64,000 nt of DNA from Psammoneis japonica. Lineage: Eukaryota. The stretch lies in contig QPGO01000022.1 in the NCBI GenBank assembly GCA_008632985.1, forward strand, positions 124,001 through 188,000, in the 5' to 3' direction. Made by a program: the position numbers and the translations under genes. Shown here one piece after another: positions 4,858 to 44,250 of the stretch (positions are counted from its first letter, which is position 1; each line of letters starts with the position of its first letter). The notes beneath the pieces were generated by a model. It made no database searches, was not told the origin of the DNA, and was given only the letters and a program-made list of their open reading frames with translations.

Positions 4858-5450
4858 TTCGGGTATGCCTTCGTCAGTTTCTTGCTTGCCATGAGATCTT
4901 GTGTTTCCAGTGTATCTGGAATTGTTCTATACTGGACTTATTTCCCGGCCAGCTGAGATGTCTGGCCCGCCAGGCCGGGTGCTTGGTGTCTTTCCTGTAT
5001 CTGCCTCTGTTGTCATGGTTATCTTTTTGTTTCATCAAAAAGGTATTGTTCTCATTGTGTGCGAACCAAACCCGCCAAATTAATTTGGATGCGAACGATG
5101 ATGTCATCAGAACTTCATTTTCACTCTTTGCATCATCGTCGCGTTTTTGCGTTCGCTTTCTCGCGCTCTTAGTACTTCTGTGTTGTGTGTTGTGTGTGTA
5201 TGTTGTCATAATGTTCATTTCTCATCAATGTAGAAGTAGAAGTAGAAATGAGTACGGCAGTCATGAGCTGTCAATCGTGGGATTGAGAAACGGCCAGACG
5301 CAGTCTCAGTGCATCATGCACTCAGATTCATTGTGTCCTGAAGATTGCAAACGACATCATCATCACCCAACCTTCCCAGATTTGCACAAAAACATGGGTC
5401 GCATCAAACATGCAAGATTTGTCTTTGCTTGAACACGCACTTTGTCAAAA

Positions 5451-5606
5451 CACAGCAGCGAGCAGTTGGGAGCAGAGCACCAGTGCTCACATCAGGAGCA
5501 CAGGCGCTTGCACAGCATCGCATTGTGTCGAAGCACAGCAGCGCGCAGTTGGGAGCGCAGCACCAGTGCTCACATCAGGAGCACAGGCGCTTGCACAGCA
5601 TCGCAG
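5451..5606. repeat. Two-copy tandem repeat, about 83 bp period
   Basis: cacagcagcg.gcagttgggagc..agcaccagtgctcacatcaggagcacaggcgcttgcacagcatcgca at 5451 and 5534. Confidence 0.9.
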
Positions 5607-5964
5607 TGAGCAACATGCACTTCATTGCGTGCTGGAAAAGGCCGTTTCTCGTTTCTCCACAAACACCATCAATGCGGAGCACCTCCAACAATGGCCGTCG
5701 CCGCTGAAAACGAGCATTGTGGATGTTGTGTTGATGCCATTGGGCCTGCTGTTGTCAACCCAAAAACTGGTTCACAATGAAAACAAATGAGAATGTTCTC
5801 TTGAGCCGAAATGTGTTTCTTCATTCTCACACTGTTCTCAGCGAGTGAATCAAATCGCTCCACTGCATTTGACGGAATCTGTTGATTCGAAGTGTTTTTT
5901 GGTTTGCTCAACTTCTTGTTCTCCTTTAATCTTTGTCCACATTTCTACAGGAAAATGTCACATC

Positions 5965-6150
5965 ATGCTGGGCGGCTCAAGTTGACACCACTTCAAACGG
6001 GGCGGTTCAAGCGGGCTGCGTCATGCGAGGCACGAGGCGGCTCAAGCGGATGCCAACACCTTGCTGGGCGGCTCAAGTGGACACCTGCACCTTGCTGGGT
6101 AACTCAAGTGGATGCCAACACCTCGCTGGGTGACTCAAGTGGATGCCAAT
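5965..6150. repeat. Minisatellite, about 30 bp unit, about 5-6 degenerate copies
   Basis: Recurrent gctgggcggctcaagtggatgccaacacc. Confidence 0.85.
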
Positions 6151-6399
6151 GTTGAACATTGTGTGGAGTGGTCCAAGGGTGAGGAGCACTCTTCATTTTA
6201 AAATCTGCGGTCTACCACTTTTGGGAAAGTCCCGAAACAAAGGGCAGACGAGGTTGCTCTCGTCTCTAACAACCACGAGTGACTGTCAAGGCAGCTGACT
6301 GCAGCAGCTCCTCAGCAATTTTTCTCTGCAAGACGGCCCGCGAGAGCCAAGGGGTTGCTCCCCGGTGAGACTGAGAGTGGCACCTCCAAGGAAGGGGGT

Positions 6400-8989
6400 G
6401 CCACTCGACGTGCTGCGACCCAAATCTCAGTTAGATGGGGTTGCCTACCCTCTGAGGTGGTGATTGGTTGTTTTCAAGGAATGTGGCAGGATGGAAGGAT
6501 AAAACAGCTGGACTGGATTGATCCACAGCACAGAATGGTCATCGAAAAGCTTGGATGGTCGTCCGCAGTGGCGCTTCTAGACGCCTCTCCTCCGCTGGAC
6601 GCTTGTCCATTTTCTTGTGCTTGCGCACCTTCTTACAAAGTCGATCTTGCGCAATGCCATCGACTGATCCAACATCTGAAAGGCGTTGGGCACGGGAAAA
6701 AGCAGTGCAGGTCAAACCATGCTCCTTCTCGCGGTTGGACAAATCGACGACAAAATGGGACTTGATGGTTTGGCCTTGAGCTTTCCAAATGGTCATCACC
6801 CAGCAAAAGCTTCAAGGGCAACACAGCACGAGCATGTTCATCACAGCCCGCATCATCTTGCTTTCGAGTGCACACGGCTGCAGTCACAGGGTGAATTGGC
6901 ACCCAACCTCGGCAACTGTCGTCGTCGGGAAAAAACGTTCCTCCACCGTAGTCTCTGCCAAAGTCAACCCACACAAACTTTGGAAGAGATGGAGCCAAGC
7001 CTGATTCGTCACACACAATGTCCTTTGCTGTCCCAGTTGCTCCATTGCACAATCCCGCCGACTGAGCAATGTTCATGGCAAGCATTGCTTGTGCTCCGAC
7101 GCTGAGGTGCACCNNNNNNNNNNNNNNNNNNNNNNNNNNNNNNNNNNNNNNNNNNNNNNNNNNNNNNNNNNNNNNNNNNNNNNNNNNNNNNNNNNNNNNN
7201 NNNNNNNNNNNNNNNNNNNNNNNNNNNNNNNNNNNNNNNNNNNNNNNNNNNNNNNNNNNNNNNNNNNNNNNNNNNNNNNNNNNNNNNNNNNNNNNNNNNN
7301 NNNNNNNNNNNNNNNNNNNNNNNNNNNNNNNNNNNNNNNNNNNNNNNNNNNNNNNNNNCAATTTCCATCATGAAGACGCTCTAGGAAGCCACAGAACCAA
7401 ACTGATTTGGGATCGTTGGGGTCGATGCGATTGTTTTTTGTCAGCTTGATGACCGTGTTGAACATTTGGTAGAGATTGTATCCGTTTCGATCATCATTGC
7501 TCGCAAACCCAGTCGCTTCCCACAAACAACGTCCTCCTGCTGGTGGCAACTGTCCAGGATCACCAGCCGATGCCACAACAACTCCGCCAAATGGTTCATT
7601 GACACCTTTGATTTCACGCAATCTCCGGTCGATGTGATGAAACTCTCTTTGACGCAGCATCGAGAACTCATCAAGAATCAAAAGCTTGAGATTCGCAAAC
7701 TTATCTTGAGCTTCAGTGAGATTTTTGTTCGTGAGAGGACGACAACGTTTACCGGAGAGGGGCATTCCCAGTCCTTCTTGGTGAGAGTGAACCGTAGATC
7801 CACCAATGACCGTTGCAGCCTTGCCTGTTGTAGCCACAAGAGCACAGCTGCTTGTCGGAAGTCCACGGTCCCGGAGAGTGGTGGCAACAGCATCAACAGC
7901 AAATGATTTTCCTGCACCTCCCATCCCAACAAGGAGAATGCACTGTCCCTCACTCTCTCCAACAACAGCACTTACAATTGCGTTGTGAGCCAGACGTTGT
8001 CGTTCATTGAGCGAGTCAAAAGAAACTTGACTCCTTGCAGCTCGATCGACGGGGTTAGACATGAGATGATCATGCTTTCGCTCCACTTCCTTGTCCCATC
8101 CATCACATTCCGGACAGTCATGCTCGAGTTCTGAAAAATCATGATCCTCTGACCATTTGAGATTGCTTCCAGAAAGAGCTGATGCATCGTCCATCTGCGC
8201 AGCATGCCCTGCATCCATCCAAGAGTCTTGGCTTGCATCCGTTGAACCAGAGTCCAAGTCGTCACCCATTGGCGCGTCAACGTTGTCATTCACGCCGTTC
8301 CTGTTGGGCAAGCGCAAGCTCGATTCAATCTCGCATTGAAGAAAACCAGGAATTTGTTGACCTTGTCGCGTCAGAAATGGAGCATGCTGGCTCCAAGCAC
8401 GAATGACATCGTCATTGGATGCGTTGGCGCCACCCCAAGCAGATTCAAATGTGCCACTCCATGGTTGATGCTTGGTCAATGAGTGCTTGCAGTGCTTGAC
8501 AAAGTTGGGACCTCCAGGAGAACTTGGGACTCGAGGTGCAAAAATGGCTGCCGTGTTGGGTTTCTGGTGGCAGCGGATTTTCTTCTTGTGCTTTCCCGAC
8601 TTGCCAACACAGAATCTAGCGGCAAATTCTTGTAGAGTGAGGTCTCTAAGTCCTGGCTCAAAGGCTGCAAAAACTGAACGATTGGCCCAGGCTTCTTGGT
8701 TGAGGCGTGCAGCGCATGCATCAACGACCGTCGGCATTGCAGCAGAATCCGCTCCTGCATCGGCGCCAACGTCTCCATCAGAAGGATCATCCGACTCCTC
8801 CAGGTCAACTTGCCCAGTGGCATTTTCGAGATTGACAGTGACAAAGGTGTGGGAGCAAGAGACAAGAGGCAAACTTAAAATGAGATGGCACGTCTCCTGT
8901 TTGGAAACCATTCGCTCACCTGTTTGGGGTGACCATTTTGATTCATTCAAAGAACAAACAATGTGCTGTGAGCAGAAATGTAAAGTCAC
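6400..8989 (-). pseudogene. PIF1-like SF1 helicase region of the Helitron, spanning an assembly gap
   Basis: ORFs 7073..8989, 6633..7361 and 6539..6799 with Walker A/B, GLCNGATG, and helicase motifs V/VI. Confidence 0.88.
7114..7358. other. Assembly gap (N run)
   Basis: Run of N bases. Confidence 1.
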
Positions 8990-11806
8990 ACAAGGATCAA
9001 ATCAAAACTAGACGTGCCCAAAAGCTTGGCCATTGCACTCTTCAACGCTGCCTGTGCACTGCATCCATCATCGATTTTCTGCTCTGCTATTTTGTGAACC
9101 ATCGCGGTCATTCGCATGGACGGCATGCTGGATTCAGACTTGGAGACGCACTTGGTCATGTGCTCAACGACCTTGCCGGCATCTGCAACAAGTCGGAAAT
9201 CAACATTGGCTCTCCAAACCTCGAACATTGGGCGCAATGACTGTTGATCCACTTGTCGTTGCGTGCCAACACCATTTCCATTCTTGAGACTTTTTGGGTC
9301 TCTCCAGCTGTGTTCTTGACAAGCTTCTCTACAACAACCAGACGAGAAATTCTTGAAAGCTGCAAAGGATGTCCAAAGCGACAGTCCAAAATGTGTTCAT
9401 CTGCTTTCGCCTTGTCGCACTTGGACTTGCGGTCACAGCAGCCGCCGGGCTTGCATGCATGCCGTTCCACCACGTTGCATGGATTGCAGCAGTTGCTGGT
9501 GCAGTCATCTCTCGTCATCTCTGGCACATCTTGAGGCCTGTCATTGCTTGGGTGCACTCCATCCACCCCGGGACGAAACTTGGTGGACTCAGCCGCTTGT
9601 CGGATGTGGCATCTTCTGGAGGGCTGGGGTGAAACGCAGAGATGAGAAATTCATTAAAGGCGACAACCACGTCTTGTGCCTCCTTTCCATCTCTGACAGC
9701 TTGCAGCATCTGTTCAAAAGAAAGCTCCTCGTCATCTTTGCATTCAAACTCCTCTTCATGTGTGTCCAGTTCACGATCCTCCTTGGCAAAATCGTCATCC
9801 TCATCCAGTGGACCTTGTTGGCACAGTTTCAAAGCAGCCAATCTTCCTTCCAAAACAACCTGTGACAGGTCTGTCAGCCCCGGGTCAGCCTCCAGTCGCA
9901 AACATCCGTGAACATGAGCGGTGCCGGGGGCTTGGTGTTCGATCCGAAACCAAGTCCAGCTTGTTTTCATGCCATTCTTTCCAAAGAAGCTCTTCATCAT
10001 CAAATTGACCCGTTCTTGAAAGAAGGCGTCAACAATGTGAGGATTGTCTCGGACAGCCTTGCGACGATGGGTGGCTTTCTCTTCTTCTGAAAACTCTTCA
10101 TGGTTAGAGTTGCAAGCCAACAAGGCGTGAAGGTCCGCCCAGTGGTTGTCGGCGGCTGAAAAAGCAAACCACAATGTGGGCATTCCGCACTGGTCCATCA
10201 GAGCCTCGAGCTCCTTCTTCTTCTTGTAGAAATGCGAATCGCCACCTGGGATGTTCGCGTTGAACTTTTGCATGTTGGAAACAAGTTCTTTGAAGCGCGG
10301 CCCCTTCTCTTGCACCACATGCTTCAGCTCTTCCTCGGCGAGCTGTGCGTTTTCTGGGCACTTTCGCAGGCATGCTTTCTTTTGATCCTGGTGACGATGT
10401 CGAGCAGCTGCATTCTCGGCCCAATGCATCCACCGATTGTGGCGTGCAAACGGATGCACCCACTCTCCCTCCTTGTTGTCAAAATGGGCATGCTGAAGCA
10501 AGTGCTTGTTCGCCTCCGCCATGGTCACGTTGACGCGGCGATCGTTGCACGTGACATCCCCATCGCCGCATGGGAAGAGAGCAGGAAAGGCTGGGCTTTG
10601 AAGCCGAGGAAAGGTGTGGTCATTGATGGGCTGGCCGTTGTTTTCAATCTCTTGGATGACAGAAGCAGGATCAAATCGATCGCGGAGAGTGCTTGAAATT
10701 TCGGCGCGCTGCTGACCTGGATGAGGGCCAGATGGCAGATGCCCAGACGCAACATCCTCGCCCTCCTGTCCGCTTGCCCCACCTTGTTCTGGACCACTGG
10801 CAGCAGCGTCTTGGTCCTCACTTGCATCACCTGCTGGCTCACTCTCATCTGAAACAGAAGACATGGAATCTGCCACTGAACCATCCTCTGGAAGAAGTGA
10901 AAGCTTTTCTGGGTCAATGTCGATGTCACAACAGCCCGGATGATTTTCCTTCAGCCAGACAAGACATTCTGTGACATTGTCATGGCGAACCTGAAAGTCT
11001 TTGCATCCATTTGGTGTCCTTTGGTTTGGCTTTCGAAGGACAAAAACTGGCAAGTCGGAAACCTTGAGTGGAAGGCTCGCAATGACTTCGTTCACATCCT
11101 TTTCAAGATTCACGACGGATCCTTTGTACCCAACTTGACCAGACTGCAGACGACAGCACTTCATGACAGCATGAGTGCAAGCAATTGGCATCTCTTTGAC
11201 CTCGGATGGCATGGGCAGGTGGGCAGGACGTCCCTTGGCATGGATGTCCATGTTGTTTGCTGCAGAGAAACGACTCAACACATGCTCCTTGATGTCCTTG
11301 GAACAAGCAAGGCACTGCCGCGGGTCGGACTTGTTCATGGTCATGTTGAACCAGCGCTTCTTGCAAGTGGCACACCGCGTCATTTCTGTCTTTGAAATTC
11401 CGTGCACAAATTCATCTTGACAAGCTTTCATCTGTGGACCAGTCAAACAAGAGTGAGAACGATTGAAGAGGAAAGCAACGACAATCAAAATTGTGTCTCT
11501 TGCATTGGGGTGGTCTTCTAGATTGACACCTGGATGCCGGCCGTCCCTGCAAGCTTCAAAACATTCATCAAGGGAAGAGGGTGGAACTGGAGGGTTGTCA
11601 GAAGAGGACGAAGTAGATGATGATGACGAGGAGGAAGACGAGGACGAGGACGAGGAAGGGTCATCGTCCATTGGTTGCCTTTTTCGTCTGTTTGCTTGTT
11701 TCATTGCTTGGCGGTTTTGCAGTCTTGCTTCTGCTGTTGACACCCCTTTGAAAATCTGGCTTCTGCATTTGATTGGCGTTGTTGAGCCCTTGCCGTTTCT
11801 TGCCAT
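8986..11806 (-). pseudogene. Helitron Rep (HUH endonuclease) region, frameshifted
   Basis: ORFs 9515..11806, 9156..9566 and 8986..9252; motifs WRANVDFRLV and VEHMTKCVSK (mutated YxxKY). Confidence 0.85.
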
Positions 11807-13728
11807 TCTTGAGTCGACAGGTGTTCTCGTGCTCGTGCTTGAGATTGCTCCTTCCTTCCATTCGCAACTCTGTGATTGTTGGTGGAGGAATCAATGGCAG
11901 CTGGCAGATCTGGATGAGCAAGAATGGATGAAGTAGAGCCGTGAGTAAAAAATTCGATGAAGTAGAACCAACAAAATAGAAACACTTACGACTCGAAGTG
12001 CGTTGTCGTTTCGCATCTCTGTCAGAAGAATCATCGACAGCGCCGGGCACTCGTCGAGTTCTGTGACGAAACTCAGGATCAGTGATGTTTGAAACCTCCG
12101 AATCTTGCGTTGACGAAATCTCAATGTGATCGACTGGAAGAGAAAACTCGGGATGTTTGGCGCGACTCTGGAAAGTGTCCTCTCGGTTGCGCTTCCTGAC
12201 GTCTTTTACGGCTCGATCCTCCGCTCGGCGTTCAGCACGTCTCTTTCGGCTTCGTTCTCTTCTGCGCTGTGCAGAGGTTGAAAACGAATCGGGGGTTCCA
12301 AATGCTGCATCCTGCGATCCATGAGAATGGTGCGCATGCGGCGCTCCAATATGTGCGTGTGGCGGCATGTGATGGGGAGCAGGAGGTGGACGAAAGCAAG
12401 GAGCCGACATCCAATGATCACAGGGAGGAGACAAAAAAGCTTGAGCCGGAGCACGCTGGCATCCAAAATTGGGCACACCCGGTGGCATCATGAAAGCATC
12501 GCAGGGGCGAGAGTTCCTCACATCGAGAGAGCCATGAACGACAGACGGGTTCCAGTCCTGGGTGGGACTTTTTGTGACATTTGCCCCGCAGAATTCTGCG
12601 TGCGAGCTCTGTAGTTCGTACTCTGGTTGATGGATGTGTTTGTCTTCGACATGAAACAAACAGCCAAGTTTGCAGTGCACACATCTCTGTTCACACTCGA
12701 AGTTTTGGACAATGCGCCTGCCCCATGCCACTCTCAAGACACTCGAGAATGGCGCAGAAGAAAAAAATGTTAAAAGTTGTTGAATGGATCGCCTGACAAT
12801 TGCACTATAAAATGACACAAAATTTTGCCAAAATCATGTAGAAATGTACGTGCGCGACATGCGACGCGATTCAAAAAACCATCGATGTCACAGTTCAGCA
12901 GTGCGAGGTCCCACCCAGACCTGGAACGCGTCGACAGGAGGAGAAAAAGCAACACCATTTCGAATGCATTCGTTCCACTCATCAATCAAAGAAGCTTGAG
13001 ATTTGGTGGAATGGGTCGATGCGGGCGATGCAGGTTCTGGAGCTTCCGGTGGAACGTCGGGTCCGGCGGAAAAGAATGCCTTCTCAACAAGCTCTTGCTC
13101 CTTTGGATCCGTTGTCGCTTGTCCCACCAGATGACGAGTGGGCATGGGAAAGGAAGCAAAAGGAAAGAGGAGGATGAGTGTAGATGCAAGAGGTGCAATC
13201 TTCATCGTGTCGAAAGCGATGTCGAGACGAGACGATGAGTTTTGTGTTTGGCGGGATTTTGTTTTCCACGGGAAAAGTGAGTGGCGAGACCTCGTTTCAA
13301 TCAAGAGCTCGCAGGTGCGGAAGTTGGGTGCGACTGTTCGTGGTTGAATGTTCATTGAAATTGATGTAGAATCCTGCTGAAATCAAGTTGAGTTCTGTTT
13401 TACCGACAGTGACTCTGTTTTGGTGACAGTGGATGTTTCACTGTAAAAAATCTGTGGGTGTTTTGAGAAGCGCTTCGGGGAAACTCTGTTCGGACCGTCA
13501 AATGGAATTTTTTTTATGCAGATTCCAGAGTTCTTTCTGGGTGTTCTGCAAGATTTTTGAAATGGCACATGCATGTGTTAGAGGCACAAGCAAATTCAAT
13601 GACATGCAATGGCCTCAGAGACTGACACAAATTTATCTTCCATGTGGACCGCGTAGATTGTGCACCGGCCGAAAATCCACCGCCTGTCAACTCATCAGCA
13701 GCAATTCTACGTACATTCTACATGCACC

Positions 13729-14780
13729 TCACACACGCACACACACCTGCACAGTCCAATGACCACACACTGCGTGCGCGAGATCACCAGTTTCCATCCC
13801 AACGATGCATCCTTTCAATGAGGATTCGTGAGTGTCTTGAAGAGGGCTCTGCCACGGAAATGTGAATGAACATGCCACATCAGCAACTCCCGCCTTGCAT
13901 TCCCGTGCGCTGCGTTTTTCGAAAATGGACAATGCAAGCTTTCCAAATCTTGATGCCTCGCTCAATTTCCCAAGTGAGCACTGCACAATTCCATGCTGAG
14001 TGAAGGCAAACAAAGACAGATTTGTCTCCCGTCACGCAGCGTGTGCTTCATTGAACGAAGCAACAGAACAACAAACAAAGTGCTTTTCTTTGACCAGAAG
14101 GCACATCGAGCAATCAAAATGATCGCCTTCATTGCGCTCATCTTGTGATCGTCCGTCATTTGTGGTGGAGAGAGAAGGCCATCATTGTCCAACTTGCGCA
14201 CCATTTTCTTCACTTTTGTGTTGTCACGCAAGACATGTGGCACAGACGGTCTCTCGGGCATGATTTCTCCCAGCTGGGAGAGCAGCTCAAGACAAATTTT
14301 AACAGCTTTGTCACACTTTCTCTGGTTGGCAGAGAGGGACTCTATGATGGCAAAATGCACAGGGACCTCATCGTCAAGAGATCGAGCATTTGACAGCACC
14401 TTGTCTGACATGAGTCTGCTCAGTTCAATGTTCCCATTTCTTAGCTCCATTTCAGCCGAAGCACTGTGTGGCTTCAAGTTCAAGTTGTGCTCTTCGTTCC
14501 AACTGTTCTTCTGGTCTTTCAGCAGTGCAATGCCACATTGGAGGTGTTCTGCGCTGGCACAAAAGCAAATGTGCCCATTGCAATCTTGGCGGCTTCTAGG
14601 TTCAGCTTGGTTGATTGTGTTTTGGCATGGTCAGATGAGATGCACCTTGAACCAAGGTTCAATTGATGCGCAGCAACAACCAGCAACACCTCCTTTGATC
14701 CTTTGCAAGAGGTGCTGCTGCACCATGTTGTTTTGTCAATCTCAATGTGTGACTTGTCCTTTTCGTCCCTGCCAGCCCTG
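13729..14780 (-). pseudogene. Fragment of a diatom AAA-ATPase/TPR-like ('multi-sensor kinase'-type) gene family member, hypermutated
   Basis: AEMEL..G......D.VL.NARSL.D, LELLSQLGE..P, A.RFGKLAL and G...GMETGDL resemble the helical C-terminal region of this expanded diatom family. Tyr positions appear as H/C. Confidence 0.55.
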
Positions 14781-14819
14781 AGCAAACAAGCGGCTCATTG
14801 GACACAATCACGCGAGAAC

Positions 14820-15846
14820 TGGGAAGCAAGCGCTTCTTTGCTGGGTCAGCGCACCGCCCACTCAAGACAGGAAAGGAATCCGGGTGGGCACTTGAGACTT
14901 TTGCAGGCGAGTGGTGTTTGTTGTGTGCATCATTCGCACGACACGTGAGACACACAACAAACCATTCTGTGGCAATGCTTCTGAAATTGCCTCCTCACTC
15001 CTTGACTCTTTGTCCCTCTCAAACAAACACGAAGAATGAGGAGCTCTCTCTCAAACCGTTCATGTCAGGCTGTCAGTTTCTCTGATGGAAGGACAGACGT
15101 CAATGTGACACGTCAGATGGACTAGACCGCAACGTTTCCGCCAAAATCCTTCCCACTTCCGTGCTCTGCTGTGACAGCGGCTGCCGCCGCTTTGGCAGCT
15201 CGTCCCCTTGTGCTCTCTCAGGCCAGTCAACAGCGGTGTTGGCGGCAAGCGCTTCTTTGCTGGGTTGGCGCACCACCCACTCAAGACAGGAAAGGATTCC
15301 AGAATCCTGAGTGCCTCCACCACAGGGCCAAACGGCACCAAATTGGGAAGGGTGGGTGGGTGCCGGTGGACAATCCAAAATGACTTGGCGGGAGCAAAGG
15401 CCGGCAATGACCTTGAAGCATCTGTCCACAGAGGGAGTGGATGGAAGGGAGAATGAGAGGTGTTGTTGAAAAAAGAGGAGAGGAAAAAATTTTGGCAAGG
15501 CATGGAAAACCTTGGTGCAAAGCCGGGCAAAAAACCCGGCCAAGCCAAAAATGCAGCATCTGTGTCTTTTGCAGGCAAGTGGTGTTTGTTGTGTGCATCA
15601 TTCGCGTGACACGTGAGACATGCAATGAACCATTCTGTGGCAATGCTTCTGAAATTGCCTCCTCACTCCTTGATTCTTCATTCCTCTCAAACAAACAGGA
15701 AGAACAAGGAGCTCTCTCTCAAACCATTCATGTCAGGATGTCAGTTTCTCTGATGGAAGGACAGATGTCAATGCAACACGTCAGATGGACTGGGCTGCAA
15801 CGTTTCCGCCAAAATCCTTCCTGCTTCCGTGCTCCGCTGTGACAGT
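14820..15846. repeat. Local direct duplication: about 280 bp block (14898-15178 vs 15567-15846) plus about 60 bp block (14826-14881 vs 15245-15300)
   Basis: Near-identical ttttgcaggc.agtggtgtttgttgtgtgcatcattcgc...ctgtgacag and gcaagcgcttctttgctggg...aagacaggaaagg. Confidence 0.9.
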
Positions 15847-32699: not shown

Positions 32700-35600
32700 A
32701 GAGATCACAGGTTGATTCCTTGAGGCAAAATGAGCTGCCAGCTTGTCAGCAAACAATGGTGGCTGGCAGCAATGCAGGGAGTGTCTGATGTTGACTGGAG
32801 GTGTTGTTCAGATGTCAAACAATGTGACCGTTTGGTTGAAATGAACAAATCAACATTGATGGCAGATGGAAGCTTTGATGACCTGATCAACAGTGCTTTC
32901 CCAGTGGCAGAACAAATGCCTGCAACATTGGGACTCACAATCACTGAAGACACAACAAAGCAGCTTGTGTTGGCAAGAGCAAGAGCTCAAGGTTGCAACA
33001 GAGTGGCAGAAGTTGTTGTCAAAGTTCTCTGTGGAGAAATTGTGGGTGCAAACTGAAGAGTGATCTCAACAATCAGATTTGTGAGAAGAGAAGAGATTTG
33101 AATCTCAGCAATGCAAGTGACATGCAGAAATGTCTGAAATGATGTTGACAAATGACTTTGATGTTTTGACTGCCTCCACACTTGAACCTGATTTTGGCTC
33201 CAATCCTGAGAAAAACACCTCTAGGATTTTCCTCATGATCATAAAAAGGAGATTTGCTCAGCTCATCATCTGTCTCCTCATCTTTGTCTTCAGGGCCATG
33301 ATGTGCCAACAGATTGGGGTGCTTGTTTTTCTTCTGAACAGATGGGTTTTTGTGTCCCTCTTGGGTGAAAAGCTGGAGTCTTGCAGCATCATCATGCCAA
33401 CAACTTCTGATTTGTCATCCTTGCCAAATGTCTCCAGTTAACTCTCATCCATGCTGGAGTTGCAGAATGGGCACTGTCCAGATGACTCAATGCAGCCAAG
33501 TGCACAGTGCAAGTGCGCTGGCTGTCCACAGCAAGAAAGTCCTGTGTGTCAACTCTGAGTGTCTCATCAAGGCACAAACACCATGACACAAGTGTTGGGG
33601 AAGCTTGTTGTCCATTTGACAATTTGACAAAGACAAAGGTTTTTTCTCCATGTCAATGACAAGGTTTCTGGGAATTTTTTTGATCTTGTCATCATCCAAG
33701 TCAATGGACACTCCATGAACTTTATGGCAGAAAAATGCAAGTCTTTGATGGGTTCTTCAGCAACTCCAAACATTTGCACATCACCATCTCTTGGTAATTT
33801 TCTGGAGAAATGAGCTCAAGGGGCATGGGCGTGCTCTCCTCTGACAAAGACAACTCCACATTAAAACACAAGCTTGAGGTGCACAACTGAAGCTGTCCTT
33901 CTGAAGACCAAGGGCACCTCCCCTGGTGACTTTCCAAGCTTGGGTGGATCCACTGCAATGGCAATTCTTTGCTGCAGGAGGTGTGCCACTTTCCTTGTGT
34001 TCTAAAACCCACCTTGCTTGAGCATCTGGGTCAACCAAGCCACACCTTTTGAGAACACAAATGATTTCATCATTCCAAATTCTGAGTTTGAAGCCAAGAC
34101 CATCAAAAACTTTCACGGTGGTTTGAGACTGCAAAAACTGCAGCACGGCATGATGCAAGGACTTGTGTGCAATGGAGAGAAGCATTTGGACTGATTGTGG
34201 CAAATCCACTGGCTTTGTCATCAACTGTTCCTTTAGATGAATGAGTGATGCAGACCCAAACTGAGCATGGACCAGTCTCACATGGGCACCAAATGACCCT
34301 CAAGAGCGGTCAGCTGGCAGAAAGAGGACACAAATTTTGTGTCAAACCAGCAGTTTGTGGTTTTGTTGACTCTGATGCAGTCATCATTGCAGCAGCTGAT
34401 CTTGAATGGCTGGCCAGTCATGATGCACCTGCTGCATTGCAACACAGGACAAACACACTTTGGTGTGGTCCCGTCATCCAGGGACTCTTGGTGAGTTGTT
34501 TTGGACAGATCAACACTTTGTTGCAGTGGAAACTTTGACAAGAACTTTGGGTCTGACACTTGCAGCTTTAGCTCTGGCAGCTTGGTGGGTGGTGTGTGCT
34601 TGGGCACCTGCTTCATCACCTGCTGCTCTGTTTCTTTCTGTGGCTTGGCCTGCTTTTGCTTTGTGGGCTCTGGTTTGTTTGGCATTTGATCTGGCTGAGG
34701 TGCTGGCTGGCTTGGCTTTGTCTGGTTTGGCCACAGCTTGAGTTGCAGACCTGGCCCTAGACTTGATGGATTGGGTGCCTGCTCTTGCTTTGACTTTTGG
34801 GGGTGTTCCAAAAGGCCCCTTTTTCTCTTCTTTGGAGGAATTGTCTGGGCTGTGCTGTTGCCCCACTTCATCCCCTTGGACACATGGGCCTCTTTTGGTG
34901 GCTCCACTGCACCACAGCTTGGGTTGGTTGGCCATGTCAATCTGTTGCCAGCATTGGGCTTGATTGGAGAGAACAACGCAAGGGCACCACTGGTTGCAGT
35001 GGCGTGAGGGCCTTTCATGTTGGCTTGCAGTGCAGACCCTTCAGCCTGGAAGTCCAAGCTGAGGTCACCCAAGCCCCAAGCCATCACAAGCTTGTCTCAG
35101 AAGCAGGGTGTGGATGCTTGATGCAAGGACTTGTGTGCAATGGAGAGAAGCATTTGGACTGATTGTGGCAAATCCACTGGCTTTGTCATCAACTGTTCCT
35201 TTGGATGAATGAGTGACACAGACCCAAACTGAGCATGGAGCAGTCTCACAAGGGCACCAAATGACCCTCAAGAGCAATCAGCTGGCAGAAAGAGGACACA
35301 AATTTTGTGTCAAACTAGCGGTTTGTGGTTTTGTTGACTCTGATGCAGTCATCATTGCAGCAGCTGATCTTGAATGGCTGGCCAGTCATGGTGCACCTGC
35401 TGCATTGCAACACAGGACAAACACACTTTGGTGTGGTCCCGTCATCCAGGGACTCTCGGTGAGTTGTTTTGGACAGGTCAACACTTTGTTGCAGTGGAAA
35501 TTTTGACAAGATTTTTGGGTCTGACACTCGCAGCTTTAGCTCTGGCAGCTTGGTGGGTGGTGTGTGCTTGGGCACCTGCTTTGTCACCTGCTGCTCTGTT

Positions 35601-37644
35601 TCTTTCTGTGGCTTGGCCTGCTTTTGCTTTGTGGACTCTGGTTTGTTTGGCATTTGATCTGGCTGAGGTGCTGGCTGGCTTGGCTTTGTCTGGTTTGGCC
35701 ACAGCTTGAGTTGCAGACCTGGCCCTAGATTTGATGGATTGGGCGCCTGCTCTTGCTTTGACTTTTGGGGGTGTTCCAAAAGGGCCCCCTTTTCTCTTCT
35801 TGGGAGGAATTGTCTGGGCTGTGCTGTTGCCCCGCTTCATCCCCTTGGACACATGGGCCTCTTTTGGTGGCTCCACTGCACCACAGCTTGGGTTGGTTGG
35901 CCGTGTCAATCTGTTGCCAGCATTGGGCTTGATTGGAGAGAACAAAGCAATGGTGCACCACTGGTTGCAGTGGCGTGAGGGCCTTTCATGTTGGCTTGCA
36001 GTGCAGACCCTTCAGCCTGGAAGTCCAAGCTGAGGTCACCCAAGCCCCAAGCCATCACAAGCTCCTGTCTCAGAAGCAGGGCATGGATGCTTGATGGCAG
36101 GAGGTGCAGGAGGAGCCACAGGCCCAGGCTCAACCTCTGCACTGGGGCAAGTGGATGGCAGGTTGATGAAAGAGACACCCTTTGAAATCTCTTCCTGAGT
36201 CACCTCACCCATCAGGAGCATCTTCCTCTTGCAGTCTCCTCCAATGATTGCACAGCACTCAGCCACAGTCTTGGAACTGTTGAGCTTTGCAAGAGGAGTT
36301 GTGGTCAGGAGCTCATTGAAGTCCATGCCAAACACATGGAAGTAAGATGAGCGCTCATTTTTGCCCTTGTTGGCAGTTGCATTGAGAGATGCCGTTGCCT
36401 TGGGGTGCTCAGTGACCCAAGATGCATTTGAATTTCCTTGGCAGTGCTCCTCTTTCACCAGCAAAGCAATGGCTGTTTTGATTGGGTGGTTGGAGTGCTC
36501 AACAGATCCCTGGTGCCAAGGCATTCTGGCACCACCCTCGACAGAGCTGCAGCACATGTTGAGCTCCTGGATGGCTTCAGCCACTTGCTCTGCTGTGAAC
36601 TCCTTCCCGTTGTCTGTGAGGCTCACAAGGGGGGGGCAGCCAATCAAAGAACAAATGTGGCAGAACTCCTTGGCAACCCACTTTGCTTCCTTGGAGGGAA
36701 TGGCCACTGTCCAGAGCAACCTGGTGCAGTGATCTTTCAAAACCATGAGCCACTTCATGGTTTGGGAGCTGGGGTCCCCTGGGCAGAACAGGTGAGGGTC
36801 CTTTTGGCAATCCACCAAGTCAATCTAGAAATGGTCTCAGAAACTTTGACTCATGATGGGGACTCAAGCCCCCTCAACTCAACACAGAAGGCTGCACCTT
36901 GCTGCAAGTGGGGCAAAGGTCAATGAAGTGAGAAACCAGCATGGCCATGACATTGTAAAAATTTTCTTGATGTCATTGAGCATGTGAGACCCAATTTGAG
37001 ATGACTGCCTGTTTGTCCATGGTGCTGCACCACAACATCAAAAACTTGCTCAATGTGGAGAACAATGAGCTTGGATGTCACAGATCCATCCGCGCCTTTC
37101 TTGATCCAAAAAAGCATGCCGTGGTCAAGGTCGCTGGTCTCCACCAAAAAAACCTTCTGCCACTTGTGAGCTTGGTGGGTGAAAAGCTTGCAAAACTCTT
37201 TTGCACTGAGCCCATCAGCTCCTGTGTTCCAGAACTTCACTGTCCAAACCCTCTTCTCCCACTCAGATCGAAGCAAGAGCTTGGACTTTGGTGGGATCAC
37301 AGCGCTGGCAAAGTCATCATTCTCAATGCCAAATTCAGCCTTGTTGAAGGCATCTGGTCTCCATGAAGATGCCCCTGACCTGTTTGGGAGAAGTCACAGC
37401 AGTTGCATCAGGGCGGGAGGGGCAACTGACATGGTGGCAAAAGAAGCAGCACAAAGAGACTCTCCTCTTCACCAAGAAACTCAACAGAAGAATCACAACC
37501 AGAGAGGTGCTGCAAAAAGGCAAAAGAGGCTGAGAGCCAAGGGTGCCACGTCTTGAGCCAGCAGGCAATTCTTCAGAATCTGACAACCAGAAGATTCCAT
37601 GCCAGGATTCACCAGATCTCAGATTCTGCAGAATGGTCGTAACA
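32700..37644 (-). mobile_element. Ginger/KRBA2-SCAND3-type integrase element with long C-terminal extension, decayed
   Basis: rve motifs VDCQKDP, WLMVLKDH.TR, TDNGKEF and QGSVE.SN, with an upstream H..H...CPTC zinc region (36900-37100). Candidate TGTTAC terminus at 37644. The low-coordinate boundary is uncertain. Confidence 0.65.
34151..36063. repeat. About 968 bp tandem duplication (34151-35092 vs 35119-36063)
   Basis: Both copies start tgatgcaaggacttgtgtgcaatggagagaag and end caagccccaagccatcacaagct. Confidence 0.95.
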
Positions 37645-38013
37645 GATCTAAACCTGAGGAACCGCTCGGCGCGCCGCGCCCAATCGCTAATGATAAAGCA
37701 CACTAAACCAACTTGAATTGATCACATGGTAAATTCTTCACTCTCTCTACTCTAGTAGAGAGCTCTACTCTCTAGCTAGAGATAGTAGGGTAGCCAGCTA
37801 GCTACTGTAGAGTCGAGCGATGGATTCGGTTGAAACCGAAAACAGCCGAGCGCGCGAGTTGAATTGAGAATGGGGCCAATGAGAGTGACCGCACAGGCTA
37901 GACTCCTCTAGCTAGAGTAGAGGGTACTCTAGAATGGCGAAGAGAATCTAGATTTCCAGAGTTGAAGAATGAAAGTCTAGCAATCTTACCCTAACCGGTA
38001 GCAGTCTTTCCAA

Positions 38014-39915
38014 CTACAACAATGCATTCATTCCGTCGAGATCGGTGTTCGTTCTCCTATGACTGGCTGTTTGTACGGCACCGTAGACTCCAAATACGCT
38101 AGAAGCTAGCGGCTGGCTGTGTGTCCGATTTCTTGTTCGAGGGGCATTTCTTGCAACCCAGTCTAGTAATCTCGCTCGCTCTTCTCGTAACTCTTCATCA
38201 TTCAAAGTAAGGTCGAAGCCAAGAGATGCAACGTGACGACTTCTGACGTATGCACCATGCAGCAAATAATCCTCCGTTCCTCGACGAACTCGCACCAAAG
38301 CTCCGGCTTCATTGGCTTGCAGCACAGCTGGACTAACGAAAGGCTGGCTGAGCCTGTCGCGAGCAGCACTGTCATCAAAGAACTCGTGCATTATAGTTTC
38401 CTCAGGTTCTGGTGGCTCCTCTTCGCCAGCAACGTCTGCCTTTGTCCATTGTGGCAGACGAGCAATAAATTTGTATGTGAAAAGAATGTTGACGGTTGCT
38501 CCCACAAGTAAGCAGGTAAGCCAGTACATCCACAAGGCGTCCTTGAAAAATGATCTTGGAGCGATCGAGGAAAACGCATTCACCGCACCGCGATAAACCT
38601 GAATCGCGTTTGCATGAGACAATGTTGGGAAACAAAATGCAGCATGTGCGGGAGAAAATGGTTTGGTCTTGAATGTATCCCATCGGGAGAAAAGAGAATG
38701 CAACGCAGAGGCCATTCCAACGAGGGATAACATAAACATCATGTGCTGAAATCGAAGATACCACACGCGATGATGCTCGACAAACTCATGCATCGACGCA
38801 GCAGACGCCTCAATTTCTTTTTCTCGCTGAGCTGATGGTTGCTGCATAAGGGTGAAAGCATACAGTGTGATGCTCGGTGCTGAAAGCTGAATCCAGCACA
38901 CTGGGGCTGAAATCCTCTTGTTCAAAGCAACTCGAATGAGACTTGTGAAGAATGTACTGAAGAAGAAGACGAGCGTTAGAGACATGAGGGCCTTTCCGAT
39001 TAGAGGAAAATACAACCACGTCTTTATAGCAGCGTAACTGAGGCCCACTGTATTTGGAAACCAACTTGGGTCGGGCAGCATTCGATATTTGTAAGTCATG
39101 TAGTAAAACCAAAAGGCGAGGCACACATGAAAGGCAGAGGTGAGAAGAACAATTATCTCTCCCACGATGCCTCGTCCGGCAAAAATGCACACCATTGTAA
39201 TGCACACAACACCCATGGGAGTTGATCTTGTCGGATCCGCTAACTCGTCGATTACGACTCGCCAGGCGAGACAAGCCTTCACGAAGAAAACCAGGCAGCA
39301 ACATCCACCAACAATGTGGCACAAATAGTGGAAAGCCAGAGCAACCCGAAAGTATGAGTTGTCGTTGCATCCGACCCCAGAGAAACAACCAGGGAATTCC
39401 AAAAAGGTGCACTTTGCGGATCGATAGTGTGTCGGTATACAGCTCGGGAGCATTTCTTCGGTGAACTTGAATGTTACCACGCCCATCGTCACCCAAGATA
39501 ATCCAATAGCTCCAATCGTCAACGGCATGTTACTTACAAATACCTCTAGATAAGAAAGGAGCGAGGCGAGATAATCCAAGCATGGTTGAATCCGTTTGCG
39601 TCGAAGTTCGTTGAGAATTGAACCCTCACTTTTAGCGGTATTCTCTGCATCAAATTCTGCTCTCCATTGGGCAATCAATGCTTCCCTCTCCTTGTGGAGC
39701 TCACTCATGTAATCTCCGCGTTGTCGATGGCTGCGTTCGCTCTGTGATAAACATTGTAATTTTAAAAGCAGTTTAACAGAAATCGTGCTGGAAACCTAAT
39801 AACTCGGTTTTGTGCACCGGTTTCACTGGCTTACCGTAACCTTTGTGCTAACACCATTTTCGCTCGTGTTCTTGATTCCGTTGTCCCGTGCTTGGAGACA
39901 CTCCTCCATGAACAT
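38014..39915 (-). CDS. SLAC1/TDT family (tellurite-resistance/dicarboxylate transporter, anion channel) membrane protein
   Basis: About 9-10 hydrophobic helices; PSWFPNTVG and FSPAHAAFCFPT motifs. An in-frame upstream exon 39835-39915 is joined by GT-AG intron 39742-39834. Confidence 0.85.
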
Positions 39916-40079
39916 GGCTTTTCACTTTCGACTGCAACCACGTTTCCTGCGAGAATCACGATCAAGGCCCCCAAACCATGACTTTCCAGGGGGTCTTTCC
40001 ACCGCAATGCCTTACAACACTTTCAACTACTTGCTTTTTGTTTACACGGTAAGTTTAGGTCTATTGTACCGGTAAAATC

Positions 40080-43000
40080 AATTTGGCAAATTTGGCCGCT
40101 GGCCGCTGCCCCGTGGCCCGTGGCCGCGCGCGGGCCGCGGAACGCAGGCGTGAGCCGCACAGATGCAACGGCCAGATCAACCAAAAATTTTAACGGCACT
40201 GCAGGTCTGGGCAGGTGCGGTTGTGTTGGCATTCATTCGTTGACATGCCAGCGATCTGGGTTGATCGGTGCAACAAAGACTTCCTGGAATGCTGTTGTGT
40301 AACAGTGTTTACCTTCTGTTTCCATTGAAGTTCCTCATCTTCCTTGCCAAGCATCCCCAAGAAGCTGCTGCTCTCACATGATTGTTCTCATCTAGTGTCT
40401 TCTCTGGTGTCTGTGGCTTTTGTGTGAGATGGTGACAAAGCAGTGTCGGGTGTCACAGAGCGAGCAAAGATCTCTGTGCAGATCTGGCTGCAATGTTCAC
40501 AGCACCAGCAGAGAGTCAGTGCACCTGACTCTGGCCATGTCCTGCCAATGCTTTGAGGACACCGACGCACACCCTCCTCTCCCCCCCTTTGTGTGCCAGA
40601 GCAGGAGCCCCCCACAAAAACAAAAGTGCGGGGCATTTGCACTGAGCCAAAACTGCCTTCTGCAGAAAGCATCAAAGTGGCAGTGCTTGTCAGCCTTGAG
40701 CCTCTGCAGAGCACATGCCATGGCACAGGCACACACGCAGCTTGCCCAAACAACAGCCTTGGCGAGCGAGCGCATCCCTGTGGCATTGACGATGCCTGCA
40801 GTGTGCCCGGCAAAAGCTTTTTGGGCTGCCCACCAGCCTTGGGTTGCAGCGGAGCATCAACATGTGCCATCCTCTCTGTTCTTGGGGAAACATGGCAGTT
40901 CTTGCTTGGCCCTCTTTTGTGCAGCAGCAATCAAAGAACGGCTGGGGGGAAAGGGCCACACAACTGAGAAGTTGTGTGGCCAAAATGTTGTTCTGGCACA
41001 GATCTGAGCATTGACATGTGTGTTGGTCTCTCAGTTCTTGGGAAACACAGTGGCTCTTGCTTGGTCCTCTTCAATGCAGCAGCAAAGAAACCGTTGGGGG
41101 GAAATGGCCACACAAAAGCAGTCAGAGTGTCTCAGTTTTGTGAGAAGTTGTGTGGCCAAAAAATTGATCTGGCACAGATCTGAGCATCAACATGAGACAT
41201 GTGGCAGTCTTTCTGTTCTTGGGAAGATGCAGCGGGTCTTGCTTGGTCCTCTTTGATGTGGCATCAAAGAAAAACCATTGGGGGAAAAGGTTCGCACAAG
41301 CAGTCAGAGTGTCTCAGTTTTGTGAGAAGTTGTGTGGCAAAAAAATTGTTCAGATCCCTTGCACTTCACAATGATGTGGTGAAGCACAGGGCTGCCAGTG
41401 GACAACTGCAATGTTCTTCAGGATTGATGGTGGCTGTGTGCGCCTCCCACCTCTGCCTCTCAGGAACATCTCCAGGAGATGGATGAAAAGCTTGAGCTGC
41501 AGTGAAGAGATGAGAGACCCCACATGAACTGGTCTCACAACCTGACAAAATCCTTCTGCCTTCAAAAGATGTGCACAATGACAACAGCGCCAGGTGCAGC
41601 TGAAAATCTCCATTGAGATCTGGCTGTGCAGAGCCAACTGGAGAGAACACAGTGCATCTTTCTGTCTCTCTGGGGGTGTCATGGCCATGTGCCAAGGATG
41701 CAAGCAGCTGTGGTGATGCTTGAGAACAAATTTTTGAGCCCCAAGAGTTTTTCAACAACAACAAAGGAGCCACTGACCCAGCTTTGGACACCGCCAGCTT
41801 GCTGGTGGTGGGGGCAACTCAAATCAACCACAGTTGGTGTGCCTGCTGATGTGGAGTTGACAAGCAGCTTTCCATGACACACTCACAAAGAGCACACAAT
41901 GGCCAACAAGCAGTCCGGCAAAACCCTCTGCACACAAACCCCAACAAGAAGGGGGGCACTTGGTTTTTTTCTTTCTGAAGTCCCAAGGTTGCTCCCATGC
42001 CTCCAGAATCTGGCCATGTGTGCTTTCTTCCTCTGGCATCATGGGCACAATGCAAGAGCAGTTGCAGAGGCCAACACAGAGGAGCTGCGCAAGCTTCAGG
42101 AGGAACCTGGGCAAGTGGACAAGCACTCAAATGGGGGTGTGTCAGTCCATTGACAGCTCATCCATTTTGAGTTTGGTTGGCCCCACTGGGGGAGGGGGGG
42201 GCCAATCAGCCACTGCAAAGTGCAAAAAACTGCATTGCTCAGAGGGTGGCTTGCCTCAATCCTGACCCACCAAATGGAGCAACATGAAAATCCTCAGACT
42301 CTTGTTTAGAGAATGACCAAAGAATGACCTTTGCACCACATTTTTCTTTTTGTGACTCTCAGGTGCCCACGAAGCTGGCTTGCCCAGATGATCCCAGGTG
42401 TGGCAGGTTTTGCCAGCCAGCAGCAGCAGCAGCTCAAAAAGCCCTTGCTGTTGCCCTCTTGCACCCCCCACTCTCTGGCCTTGCAATGCCAGGCATGCTG
42501 CCTGTGCCACAAGTGTGCGTGTGCTTGTTTGTGCTGACTTGCTGCTGATTTGTGTGTTGCCACAAGTGTGCGCTTGTGTGTTTGCTCAAGCTGCCATTTT
42601 TAAAGAGCAATTCTTGAGATGGCACACATTTGAGATGCCCCCCTCCTTGCTGTTCCAGGAAGCACCCTCTCCTTTTTGGAAGTGCTTGCCACACAGCCCA
42701 GCCTGCTCAAACACATTTTCCCAGCAGCTGAAATGACCAAAACAAGGTGGCACATGCAAGCCAAGAACAGCCGGCAGCATTTCTCATTCTTGCTTTCTTG
42801 TCAGTGCCTCTTCTCATTGCAGCAAATGCATGCCACCCTTTGATGATCTCCAATGCTCACAGAGCTGTTTGGAGCAACCGTCTTCTTTGATGTTTTCCAC
42901 CTGCCATCATCAGACACAAGATTCTGGAATTTCACCATGACAAAATTGTGCACTTTCTCTTTGAGGGTTGCTTTTCTGCAGTCTCTCAAACCTCCTTGCA

Positions 43001-44250
43001 AAACAGTGGAGGGGCCTCAGAGGTTGCCAGCTCTTGCTCTGGAAAGCAGATGAGGCAAAGCCAACTGGGCATGTTTTCACCCAAGGTGAGAAACATGCAC
43101 TTGCATCTGCCCTTCTTCCATCACTGCACATTTTGTGCTGGCAAATCTCAATGGACTGCCCCCCAACATTTCATTGCTTCTTCCCTCAGATCTGATTGTT
43201 TGAGTTGTCGGCTGTTGCTCTTGTTGCTTGGAGGCTGCAGACAACAAAAGAAAAGTTTCAAGAAGAAAACAATGGGCAACTGTGCATGTGGCCACTTTTG
43301 CTGCACCTCTGAGCCACTCATGCTGAAAAAGAATGGTGCTTCAACTCCATTTTTGTGACAAGAAAAATTGGAGGCACTGACTTTGCATGTGCGCGCTGCT
43401 TGCGTGATTGGCCATTTCAAAGGTTGGCTGGCTTGTCAACCTGTGTGCAACTCTTGAGCTGCTCTGCATTTGACCATTTGTGATGAGTTGAAATTTTGTG
43501 CCTGTTGGGCTTGTCTGGCAGCTCTCAAGTTGCTGCAAAATCTCAAAGCTGAGAGCTGCTTTTTTGTTGGTTCGTTTGTTGTTTTTGCGTGACCCAAAAA
43601 TGTTGCCCACAATGACTTGAAGCAGAGATGTCACATTGCAAAAATCACACCAGTGTGCCACAAAGACACACATTGTCAATTGTGCCGGTTGCCAAGTCGT
43701 CAGAGCCATGTGCCGACAAAAAAGCCCTGCTTTGCAGTCTGAGGAAGAGAAAATGAGGCAGATGAAAAATGCCACAAAAGTCAAAAAGCCATCCACAAGA
43801 CATGGAAAACAGCAAAAATCAAAATTTCAACCATGCTTTCATGTCAAGAGCAGTCTTGTTGACCTGCCTTGGCGCTTTTGCCTTCTCAGCCACAGCAGCA
43901 GCTGATGGCACAAAAGAGAGAATGGGCAAGTTTGCGCTGGCGACTGCACGGCGCTGTTTTCAATGTGCATGGTTTGTGACTTGTGGGTCCAGACATGAAA
44001 AAATGCACTTTCATTTTGGAGCTCGGTTTTCTTGCGCGGGTTTGGTGCTGGGTTTGCACGACATGTGGGTGCGGCGTGGCACACAAAACCTGCTTGTTTG
44101 TTCAAAAGCTTGTCTCCTGGGGGGGATGAAAACACACCACTGGCGAAAAAAGTGCCCACACACTGCAAAGCGGGGGGGCAATTTTTAAAGGGCTGACATG
44201 CACAGAAAAATGATGTGGCCAGTGCCCAGTGATGTTTCGGCTCACAATGA
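40080..44250. mobile_element. Unclassified TpA- and CpG-depleted repeat or decayed element
   Basis: Same composition as the TE block and contains internal repeats. No protein family recognised. Confidence 0.5.
40852..41356. repeat. Three-copy tandem repeat, about 155-175 bp unit
   Basis: Units start gagcat(ca/tg)acatg at about 40852, 41006 and 41182, and share tcttgcttgg.cctctt and tgagaagttgtgtggc. Confidence 0.9.

Follow-up and report, generated by a model that had tools for sequence, protein, structure and literature searches.

Post-insertion loss of TpA dinucleotides from transposon-derived DNA in the diatom Psammoneis japonica

We analysed a stretch of 64 kb from the genome of the diatom Psammoneis japonica (contig QPGO01000022.1, positions 124,001 to 188,000 of the forward strand; hereafter the window, numbered from its first base), which contains two blocks of transposon-derived DNA from which the dinucleotide TpA has nearly disappeared. 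We conclude with high confidence that TpA in this DNA was converted, after insertion and close to saturation, into TpG or CpA. The change is a genuine transition from A:T to G:C at the level of DNA that is specific to TpA; it reaches any transposon class, hits the two strands to a similar extent and ends no more than a few hundred bases from host sequence. Our best guess at its cause is a DNA adenine deaminase preferring a 5′ T, and the account as a whole, including both what is shown and what is inferred, has in our estimation a probability of roughly 0.6.

TpA loss, its direction and its timing

In a scan at 1-kb intervals, the observed-to-expected ratio (o/e) of TA lies between 0.00 and 0.22 in 5001-37000 and 40001-44000, and between 0.38 and 0.74 everywhere else; across the intervals with TA o/e of at most 0.22, TG o/e is 1.37-2.51 and CA o/e 1.27-2.21. 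For counting we pooled the blocks 5255-37600 and 40100-44250 (36,252 bases, hereafter the block) and took the remaining 27,503 bases of the window as flanks. The block holds 174 TpA (a frequency of 0.0048; o/e 0.07) and the flanks 1,051 (0.0382; o/e 0.57); the flank rate would predict some 1,385 for the block, so that 87% are missing. Pooled TG and CA o/e are 1.66 and 1.62 in the block versus 1.14 and 1.13 in the flanks. An earlier note, made from the letters of the window alone, had described TA as very rare, and TG and CA as abundant, at about 5.3-37.6 and 40.1-44.2 kb next to flanking genes of normal composition, and these figures agree with it. Other dinucleotides shift little between flanks and block (ApA falls by 9%, GpA by 13% and ApT by an amount within this range), TG (3,674) and CA (3,727) are nearly equal in number over the whole block, and G+C content stays close to one half (0.49). 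Coding and non-coding DNA of the block are depleted alike. CpG is depleted too, with an o/e of 0.38 overall and of 0.11-0.76 depending on the element, and the combined deficit of TA and CG (0.068 of all dinucleotides) approximately equals the combined surplus of TG and CA (0.062). The picture drawn in the note is therefore right as to TpA, with the addition of a CpG depletion on which it had laid no stress.

The limits of the depleted DNA are sharp to about 100-700 bases and adjoin non-coding DNA dense in TA. On the left, a TA at 5253 is followed by the next at 5927; at the right edge of block 1, a TA at 36956 is followed by one at 37640, the first flank TA past the block. At the left edge of block 2, a TA at 40073 is followed by only four more, at 40191-40393, before 42307; at its right edge, a TA at 44186 is followed by one at 44287. 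Block 1 (5255..37600), made of nested transposon remains, has a TA o/e of 0.04-0.12 and a CpG o/e of 0.11-0.76 by element; block 2 (40100..44250), in which no recognisable protein domain was found, has seven TA in 4,151 bases (o/e 0.03) and a CpG o/e of 0.25. Between them lies a spared island on the minus strand (37601..40099; TA o/e 0.45-0.58, CpG about 0.95), whose non-coding edges are TA-dense. TA is normal both in the island and in the flank genes.

The direction of change can be read from conserved protein positions of two elements in block 1, a Helitron and a Gypsy long terminal repeat (LTR) retrotransposon. The window residue was compared with the consensus at conserved columns of homologue alignments, comprising for the Helitron the best 150 of 2,822 sequences obtained by an exhaustive profile search (a word-based search with the Helitron Rep protein gave two matches only) and for the Gypsy pol 120 full-length sequences. 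In the Helitron, conserved Tyr is kept at 2 of 13 columns, with eight changed to His or Cys, while other residues are kept at 246 of 302 (p 1e-6); in the Gypsy pol none of the 26 conserved Tyr remains and 21 have become His or Cys, while 337 of 502 other residues are kept (p 1e-12). Taken together, 2 of 39 Tyr survive and 29 of 39 are now His or Cys, against retention of 583 of the 804 other residues (Fisher p 6e-18). The same shift is apparent in overall composition, as Tyr makes up 0.22% of residues in transposon open reading frames (ORFs) and 2.26% in flank ORFs, and His and Cys are each more than twice as frequent in the former.

For the Helitron and the Gypsy element, these results bear out the observation in the note that Tyr is replaced by His or Cys. 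Every one of its peptide strings that we searched for was found, namely FFDLLC (20794-20811, plus strand) and, on the minus strand, LDLNMGHCH (24464-24490), PWGKCEC (24398-24418), FPCGDGD (10556-10576) and LTCTAFSR (6692-6715), as were HIDD and EHQ. The Tyr residues it had expected in the Gypsy element are those of the family consensus (LDLNMGYYH, PWGKYEY, YIDD), and those expected in the Helitron occur in 11 of 17 homologues at LTCTAFSR, 46 of 112 at EHQ and 44 of 134 at FPCG.

Of the single-step A:T>G:C changes at the conserved columns, TpA accounts for 62 and all other contexts for 13 (p 1.5e-25 in a binomial test against 0.25). An equal frequency at TpA and in other contexts had been named in the note as evidence against its proposal; with 62 of 75 at TpA the outcome favours it, and with it the claim of a distinct mutagenic process that neither fungal repeat-induced point mutation (RIP) nor decay of 5-methylcytosine explains. 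The G:C>A:T changes are found at CpG in 38 of 59 cases and elsewhere in 21. Read on the coding strand, the TpA events divide into 34 TA>TG and 28 TA>CA, which means that both strands were hit.

Comparison of repeat copies shows when the changes occurred. Differences within four repeat pairs inside the block are nearly all transitions, and include 31 dinucleotides that are TG in one copy and CA in the other, 28 that are CG versus TG or CA and seven that are TA versus TG or CA. Two repeat pairs outside the block, used as a control, have one such TG/CA double and 31 transversions among 56 differences; in another control, the units of a 66-bp periodic repeat at 45119-45439 inside the flank ORF 44644-45531, which are about 80-87% alike, differ by transitions and transversions in ordinary proportions. 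When a single ancestral TA (or CG) decays independently in two copies, a TG/CA double results. The two LTRs of the Gypsy element differ by transitions at 62 of 69 sites, and at 17 dinucleotides one has TG where the other has CA; LTRs are identical at insertion, and hence these doubles arose by decay in chromosomal DNA after insertion. The loss of TpA thus took place in DNA, after insertion and independently in each copy. A tandem duplication of about 980 bp at 34148..36096, with copies 96.5% alike, offers a relative time marker: most TG/CA states are shared by its copies, so most of the TpA loss predates the duplication.

Further evidence comes from sequencing data and from relatives of the two elements. 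The sequence is contained in three runs of one sample, of which we used the Logan contigs of run X1. These independently built contigs differ from the block at 0-6 positions per 612-1,028 bases, with a word depth of about 57-71. The note had called for confirmation in raw reads from two platforms; the contig set does reproduce the sequence, as contigs of a single sample. Over 5001-25000 there are 6,442 contigs of at least 80% likeness, and they vary from the window at 456-538 places for each type of transition and 52-76 for each type of transversion. Among the 40 variant places listed out of 2,597, 31 are transitions; at 15 of these, TG or CA in the window stands against TA in other copies, at seven the other copies have CG, one is TA in the window versus CA, one is CG in the window versus CA, and the remaining seven lie in other contexts.

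Relatives are not poor in TA. In 79 related Gypsy loci from metagenomes, TA o/e ranges from 0.43 to 1.18, even though several have a CpG o/e of 0.03-0.3; as the loci were chosen for intact motifs and best score, the absence of TA-poor copies among them indicates that the family is not intrinsically TA-poor, and says nothing as to whether the process is rare. Among the 120 homologous pol proteins, all but one still have 71-100% of the conserved Tyr. The note had raised, as a test of its own proposal, the possibility that intact active copies are equally poor in TA and Tyr; with related intact elements poor in neither, this test too comes out in its favour. The exceptions come from public protein sets. 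One Gypsy pol (P0376) keeps 2 of 23 conserved Tyr, with 18 replaced by His or Cys, and shares the string LDLNMGHCH with the window copy at an overall identity of 46%; a Helitron Rep (P0132) keeps 1 of 8, with six replaced by His or Cys. Judged by these residues, the signature is present in at least two other public records.

The loss of CpG is a second process, slower and independent. It is element-specific, while that of TpA is uniform and near complete: the Helitron combines a TA o/e of 0.11 with a CpG o/e of 0.76 and keeps 16 of 20 conserved Arg, whereas the Gypsy element, at a TA o/e of 0.08, has a CpG o/e of 0.31 and keeps 11 of 32 (p 0.002 versus the Helitron), 18 of its 21 changed Arg having become His, Cys, Gln or Trp. 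The conversion of CpG to TpG or CpA fits deamination of 5-methylcytosine in methylated transposons and leaves the TpA loss unexplained. In the model diatom Phaeodactylum, DNA methylation disappears and young transposons are de-repressed when DNMT5a is lost (PMC9998398). Five of the metagenome Gypsy loci (L079, L077, L056, L007 and L045) have a CpG o/e of 0.03-0.16 next to normal TpA (0.62-0.78); CpG decay unaccompanied by TpA loss is therefore common in this family in other organisms.

The TpA dinucleotides that remain in the block are enriched in the contexts TTAN and NTAA. TTAA persists in 32 copies, at 0.62 of its density in the flanks, TTAC and TTAG at 0.24-0.30, and ATAC, ATAG, ATAT and GTAT at 0.01-0.02. 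This suggests an extended preference that disfavours a T two bases before the edited A (-2) and an A directly after it (+1). Two other approaches to context were discarded. The neighbours of the polarised events (A at -2 in 28 of 62, C or T at +1 in 46 of 62) are confounded by the Tyr codon TAY, and a tetranucleotide mass balance for strand and context gave erratic values, between -0.5 and 1.6, since the flanks do not represent the actual ancestor of the block.

Elements of the blocks and neighbouring genes

The affected DNA spans unrelated classes, namely a Helitron, an LTR element of the Gypsy type and a good deal of unclassified repeat DNA. The Helitron remnant (6542..12833, minus strand) consists of a Rep protein with Helitron_like_N and DUF6570 domains (9515-11890; two Tyr in 791 amino acids), a Pif1 helicase (7076-9001) and a piece with the helicase C-terminal motif (6542-6811), all on the minus strand, and includes a run of N at 7114-7358. 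It is interrupted by an insertion of 389 bp (12544..12932) resembling a miniature inverted-repeat transposable element (MITE), with terminal inverted repeats of 25 nt that are 88% complementary, and present in very many copies. One contig of another copy lacks this insert, skipping from 12538 to 12932, and the summed contig depth in the bin of the insert reaches 68,426, versus about 65 for single-copy pieces. With seven TA in 300 bases the MITE-like insert is richer in TA than its surroundings, and so it may be a later arrival that has been mutated in part.

The Gypsy/Ty3 retrotransposon (21880..27076, minus strand) is bounded by LTR-like direct repeats of about 385 bp at 21880-22262 and 26693-27076, which are 82% alike, and contains pol pieces at 22291-25503 (minus strand) in the order reverse transcriptase, RNase H, integrase, broken by frameshifts. 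A second LTR-type element is represented by an integrase-core (rve) fragment at 36039..36824 (minus strand), which has no match to the family of the first.

At 17000..21850 (plus strand) lies an element of uncertain class with one of the lowest TA o/e values of the block (0.04). The earlier note had called it a long interspersed nuclear element and pointed to FFDLLC in it; the string is present, and the class depends on one reverse-transcriptase (RVT_1) match below the cut-off (E 2e-4; 21.5 bits versus a Pfam cut-off of 29.6). No other Pfam family was found for it at 0.5, and no relative in PDB. Its plus strand is strongly skewed, with 39% C and 13% G, and with 621 CA versus 337 TG. Its summed contig depth suggests one or two copies.

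This element bears on how the process finds its targets. The part at 17-19 kb has the lowest TA of all (o/e 0.02) at a summed contig depth of about 100, versus about 65 for single-copy DNA, and in terms of present-day copy numbers the high-copy parts of the block (summed depth 3,600-8,000) and this low-copy part are equally depleted. The process had been described in the note as restricted to repeats. That holds in the sense that transposon DNA is hit while genes and their non-coding neighbours are spared; as to induction by repeats, a homology trigger like that of RIP may have played a part, though the least-repeated part has the lowest TA.

The flanks contain ordinary eukaryotic genes, encoding a cyclin, an ENTH protein, Sec6, a Vps4-like AAA ATPase and a SpoU methylase. 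For one flank protein, every named relative is a diatom (genera Epithemia, Mayamaea and Nitzschia and family Bacillariaceae, at 44-57% identity), in agreement with the assignment of the host to diatoms in the note; the best match of this protein has 76% identity. The ORF of the spared island (38017-39795, minus strand; 593 amino acids) has no Pfam family and a weak SLAC1-like lead at 0.89. A flank ORF at 59083-59967 (minus strand, 294 amino acids) matches the Pfam family CesT (Tir chaperone) with an E value of 1.3e-10; this family is chiefly known from chaperones of bacterial secretion systems. A search of the whole window against Rfam gave no match.

Possible mechanisms

A DNA adenine deaminase with a preference for a 5′ T is, as a guess, the leading candidate for the agent of TpA loss, and we rate adenine deamination as the underlying chemistry a little short of an even chance. 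Adenine in DNA would be converted into hypoxanthine by an enzyme of the TadA/ADAT2 type, with an intrinsic 5′ T preference, and replication would then fix the hypoxanthine as G. A mark of silent transposon chromatin in diatoms, be it 5-methylcytosine, histone modifications or small RNA, would direct the enzyme to its targets; whether silent chromatin guides it, as opposed to a large chromosomal domain being affected, we consider evenly balanced. The elements would be disabled by missense changes (the loss of Tyr and changes of Ile, Leu and Val) and not by stop codons, since TAA and TAG are destroyed as well. The candidate mechanisms listed in the earlier note match those put forward, likewise as proposals, in a 2026 preprint on the alga Bigelowiella natans (Mettrop et al., bioRxiv 10.64898/2026.01.13.699255).

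Several considerations weigh against this account. We infer both the chemistry and the targeting, neither of them coming from an observed enzyme, modified base or chromatin mark, and as TpA is its own reverse complement, an attack on the A cannot be told by sequence from an attack on the paired T. The composition of the flanks serves as a proxy for what the elements were originally like, and the polarised changes are non-synonymous ones at conserved columns of two elements. Decay of CpG also yields TG and CA, so that TG/CA doubles between copies are a mixture of both processes. The reads come from one sample, with no platform on record, and may be the assembly's own data; the variant places listed are a small part of the total, and the choice of the 79 metagenome loci is biased against TA-poor copies. 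Finally, a single window gives the end state of the process, and not whether it is still active.

The self-complementarity of TpA gives some room to a process on the thymine side, in which an enzyme, for example a hydroxylating dioxygenase of the TET/JBP type, modifies the T of this dinucleotide in silent DNA. The modified T would then mispair with G and give T>C, appearing as TpA>CpA on one strand and as TpG on the other. The outcomes are as symmetric as this would have them, both among polarised events (34 versus 28) and in the totals of TG and CA. In dinoflagellate DNA hydroxymethyluracil has been reported to replace T preferentially at TpA and TpC, a point on which a literature search gave no supporting paper; this base pairs mainly with A, which counts against such a process, and its occurrence in diatoms is without support in the literature read. 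The sole study of the signature favours adenine deamination, as a proposal (bioRxiv 10.64898/2026.01.13.699255). Altogether we regard thymine modification as unlikely. Less likely again is a lesion or polymerase error specific to TpA, such as a photoproduct or a product of error-prone synthesis, that would go unrepaired in compact silent chromatin with no dedicated enzyme involved. The block is indeed silent-looking transposon DNA whose CpG decay fits methylated chromatin, and the effect of DNMT5a loss in the model diatom, described above, points the same way. Damage of this kind is difficult to reconcile, however, with an 87% loss of TpA beside shifts of 9-13% in ApA, GpA and ApT, or with edges this sharp next to TA-dense non-coding DNA. 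In B. natans, too, the rate is about 1,000 times the background and 11 of 15 lines are hypermutated, which the authors of the study read as regulated.

Editing of element transcripts by an ADAR- or ADAT-like enzyme acting on A after U, with the edits fixed by retrotransposition, is very improbable. A 5′ U preference is typical of ADAR (quoted in bioRxiv 10.64898/2026.01.13.699255), and two of the elements are retroelements; yet the Helitron, a DNA transposon, is equally affected, the LTRs, identical at insertion, differ by their 17 TG/CA doubles, the 28 of 62 changes that are T>C on the sense strand could not result from editing of sense RNA, and non-coding DNA and the MITE-like insert are included. 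We rejected RNA editing as the changes are limited neither to the sense strand nor to elements with an RNA intermediate. A process of the APOBEC type, which would turn C into T (or G into A) in a TC or CC context, does not fit either: the dominant change is A:T>G:C at TpA, and G:C>A:T outside CpG accounts for 21 of 59 events.

Slighter still are the chances of the two explanations that would do without any special process on TpA. One holds that these families have always been poor in TA, through codon habit, selection or another host, and that CpG decay did the rest. CpG decay is real in the block and does yield TG and CA, but it is unable to remove TpA, and catalytic and structural Tyr have been lost (0 of 26 remain in the Gypsy pol and 2 of 13 in the Helitron). 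All 79 related loci have a TA o/e of at least 0.43, even those low in CpG, sites that read TG or CA in the window read TA in further copies from this organism, and the non-coding parts are depleted alike. We therefore rejected intrinsic TA poverty, relatives being normal, conserved Tyr being lost and copies in the same organism holding TA. The other, likewise rejected, is an artefact of sequencing or assembly, for example the systematic misreading of some modified base carried by transposon DNA. While the single sample of unrecorded platform leaves it some room, the independent X1 contigs give the same letters at the word depth stated above, the outcome is stably copy-specific (TG in one copy, CA in another), changed states are shared across the 981-bp duplication, and the two Tyr-poor proteins from other records show the same pattern.

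Significance and relation to known systems

To our knowledge, mutational defences against transposons that act in DNA are little documented apart from fungal RIP. A diatom case means that the process described below for B. natans is not peculiar to one alga or to viral inserts. Phylogenetic profiling of the enzyme gains a second genome, distant from the first, and the question can now be pursued in organisms for which genetic tools exist. Builders of base editors would take an interest in any enzyme able to edit A within double-stranded chromosomal DNA at one defined dinucleotide. Tentatively, and in our estimation somewhat less likely than not, TpA-directed DNA editing might be an old defence shared across the SAR supergroup, at least by stramenopiles and rhizarians, and directed at all selfish DNA from Helitrons and LTR elements to integrated giant viruses, with a preference that spares TTAA and with an enzyme that could be found by comparison of genomes that have the signature with genomes that lack it.

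There is a practical side as well. TAA and TAG together occur 3.35 times per kb in the block versus 18.4 in the flanks, and 117 open frames of at least 110 codons are present on both strands in about 39 kb; through the loss of these stops, hypermutated elements keep long open frames. This may explain why relics appear among the predicted proteins of public sets, the two Tyr-poor proteins being examples. Gene finders will overcall genes in TpA-poor regions.

The best-known mutational defence, fungal RIP, resembles the process in the block in that elements are inactivated by mutation after insertion, through transitions only, at a specific dinucleotide, with sharp limits and a strong skew. Its direction is opposite. 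RIP changes C to T mainly at CpA, and in doing so creates TpA, AT-rich DNA and stop codons; in the block TpA is destroyed (o/e 0.07), G+C is 0.49 and TAA and TAG are removed. Deamination of methyl-CpG acts in the same block and has the same products, TpG and CpA, but it does not remove TpA, and its extent varies by element where TpA loss is uniform. ADAR and ADAT editing share the change of A to G with U or T preferred before the edited A; their substrate is RNA, whereas the changes in the block were made in DNA, on both strands and after insertion, a DNA transposon included.

The closest parallel is B. natans, and the statement in the earlier note that such a system was not known to have been described is outdated. 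The preprint reports TpA>TpG/CpA hypermutation in mutation-accumulation lines, in which the mutation rate of two integrated viral regions was roughly 1,000 times the background (about 6e-7 per site per generation; Mettrop et al., bioRxiv 10.64898/2026.01.13.699255). Of 231 mutations in these regions, 230 were A>G or T>C changes, and each of the 230 lay at TpA; the genome contains 124 clusters of windows poor in TpA and rich in CpA and TpG, and its predicted coding sequences with depleted TpA are enriched in reverse-transcriptase and DDE domains. The authors propose, as a hypothesis, a defence by DNA adenine deamination with an ADAT2-like candidate (bioRxiv 10.64898/2026.01.13.699255). Our search of the literature on diatoms and algae gave no report of TpA loss or A:T>G:C hypermutation in diatoms, and the words 'diatom', 'Phaeodactylum' and 'stramenopile' are absent from the text of the preprint.

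The signature is identical in the two hosts: A:T>G:C at TpA giving TpG or CpA, depletion of TpA with enrichment of CpA and TpG in clustered windows, and confinement to foreign or selfish DNA within regional limits, the host genes being spared in the window. The hosts are a chlorarachniophyte (rhizarian) there and a diatom (stramenopile) here, and the targets are giant-virus and virophage inserts there and several transposon classes, including a Helitron, here. The rate was measured in mutation-accumulation lines in B. natans, whereas the end state alone is seen in the window; that end state is near saturation, with a TA o/e of 0.07 compared with a rho of 0.45 for the viral region, and has CpG decay superimposed on it. 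The signature as such has thus already been described in B. natans, and what is new here is its occurrence in a diatom, on transposon targets and close to saturation.

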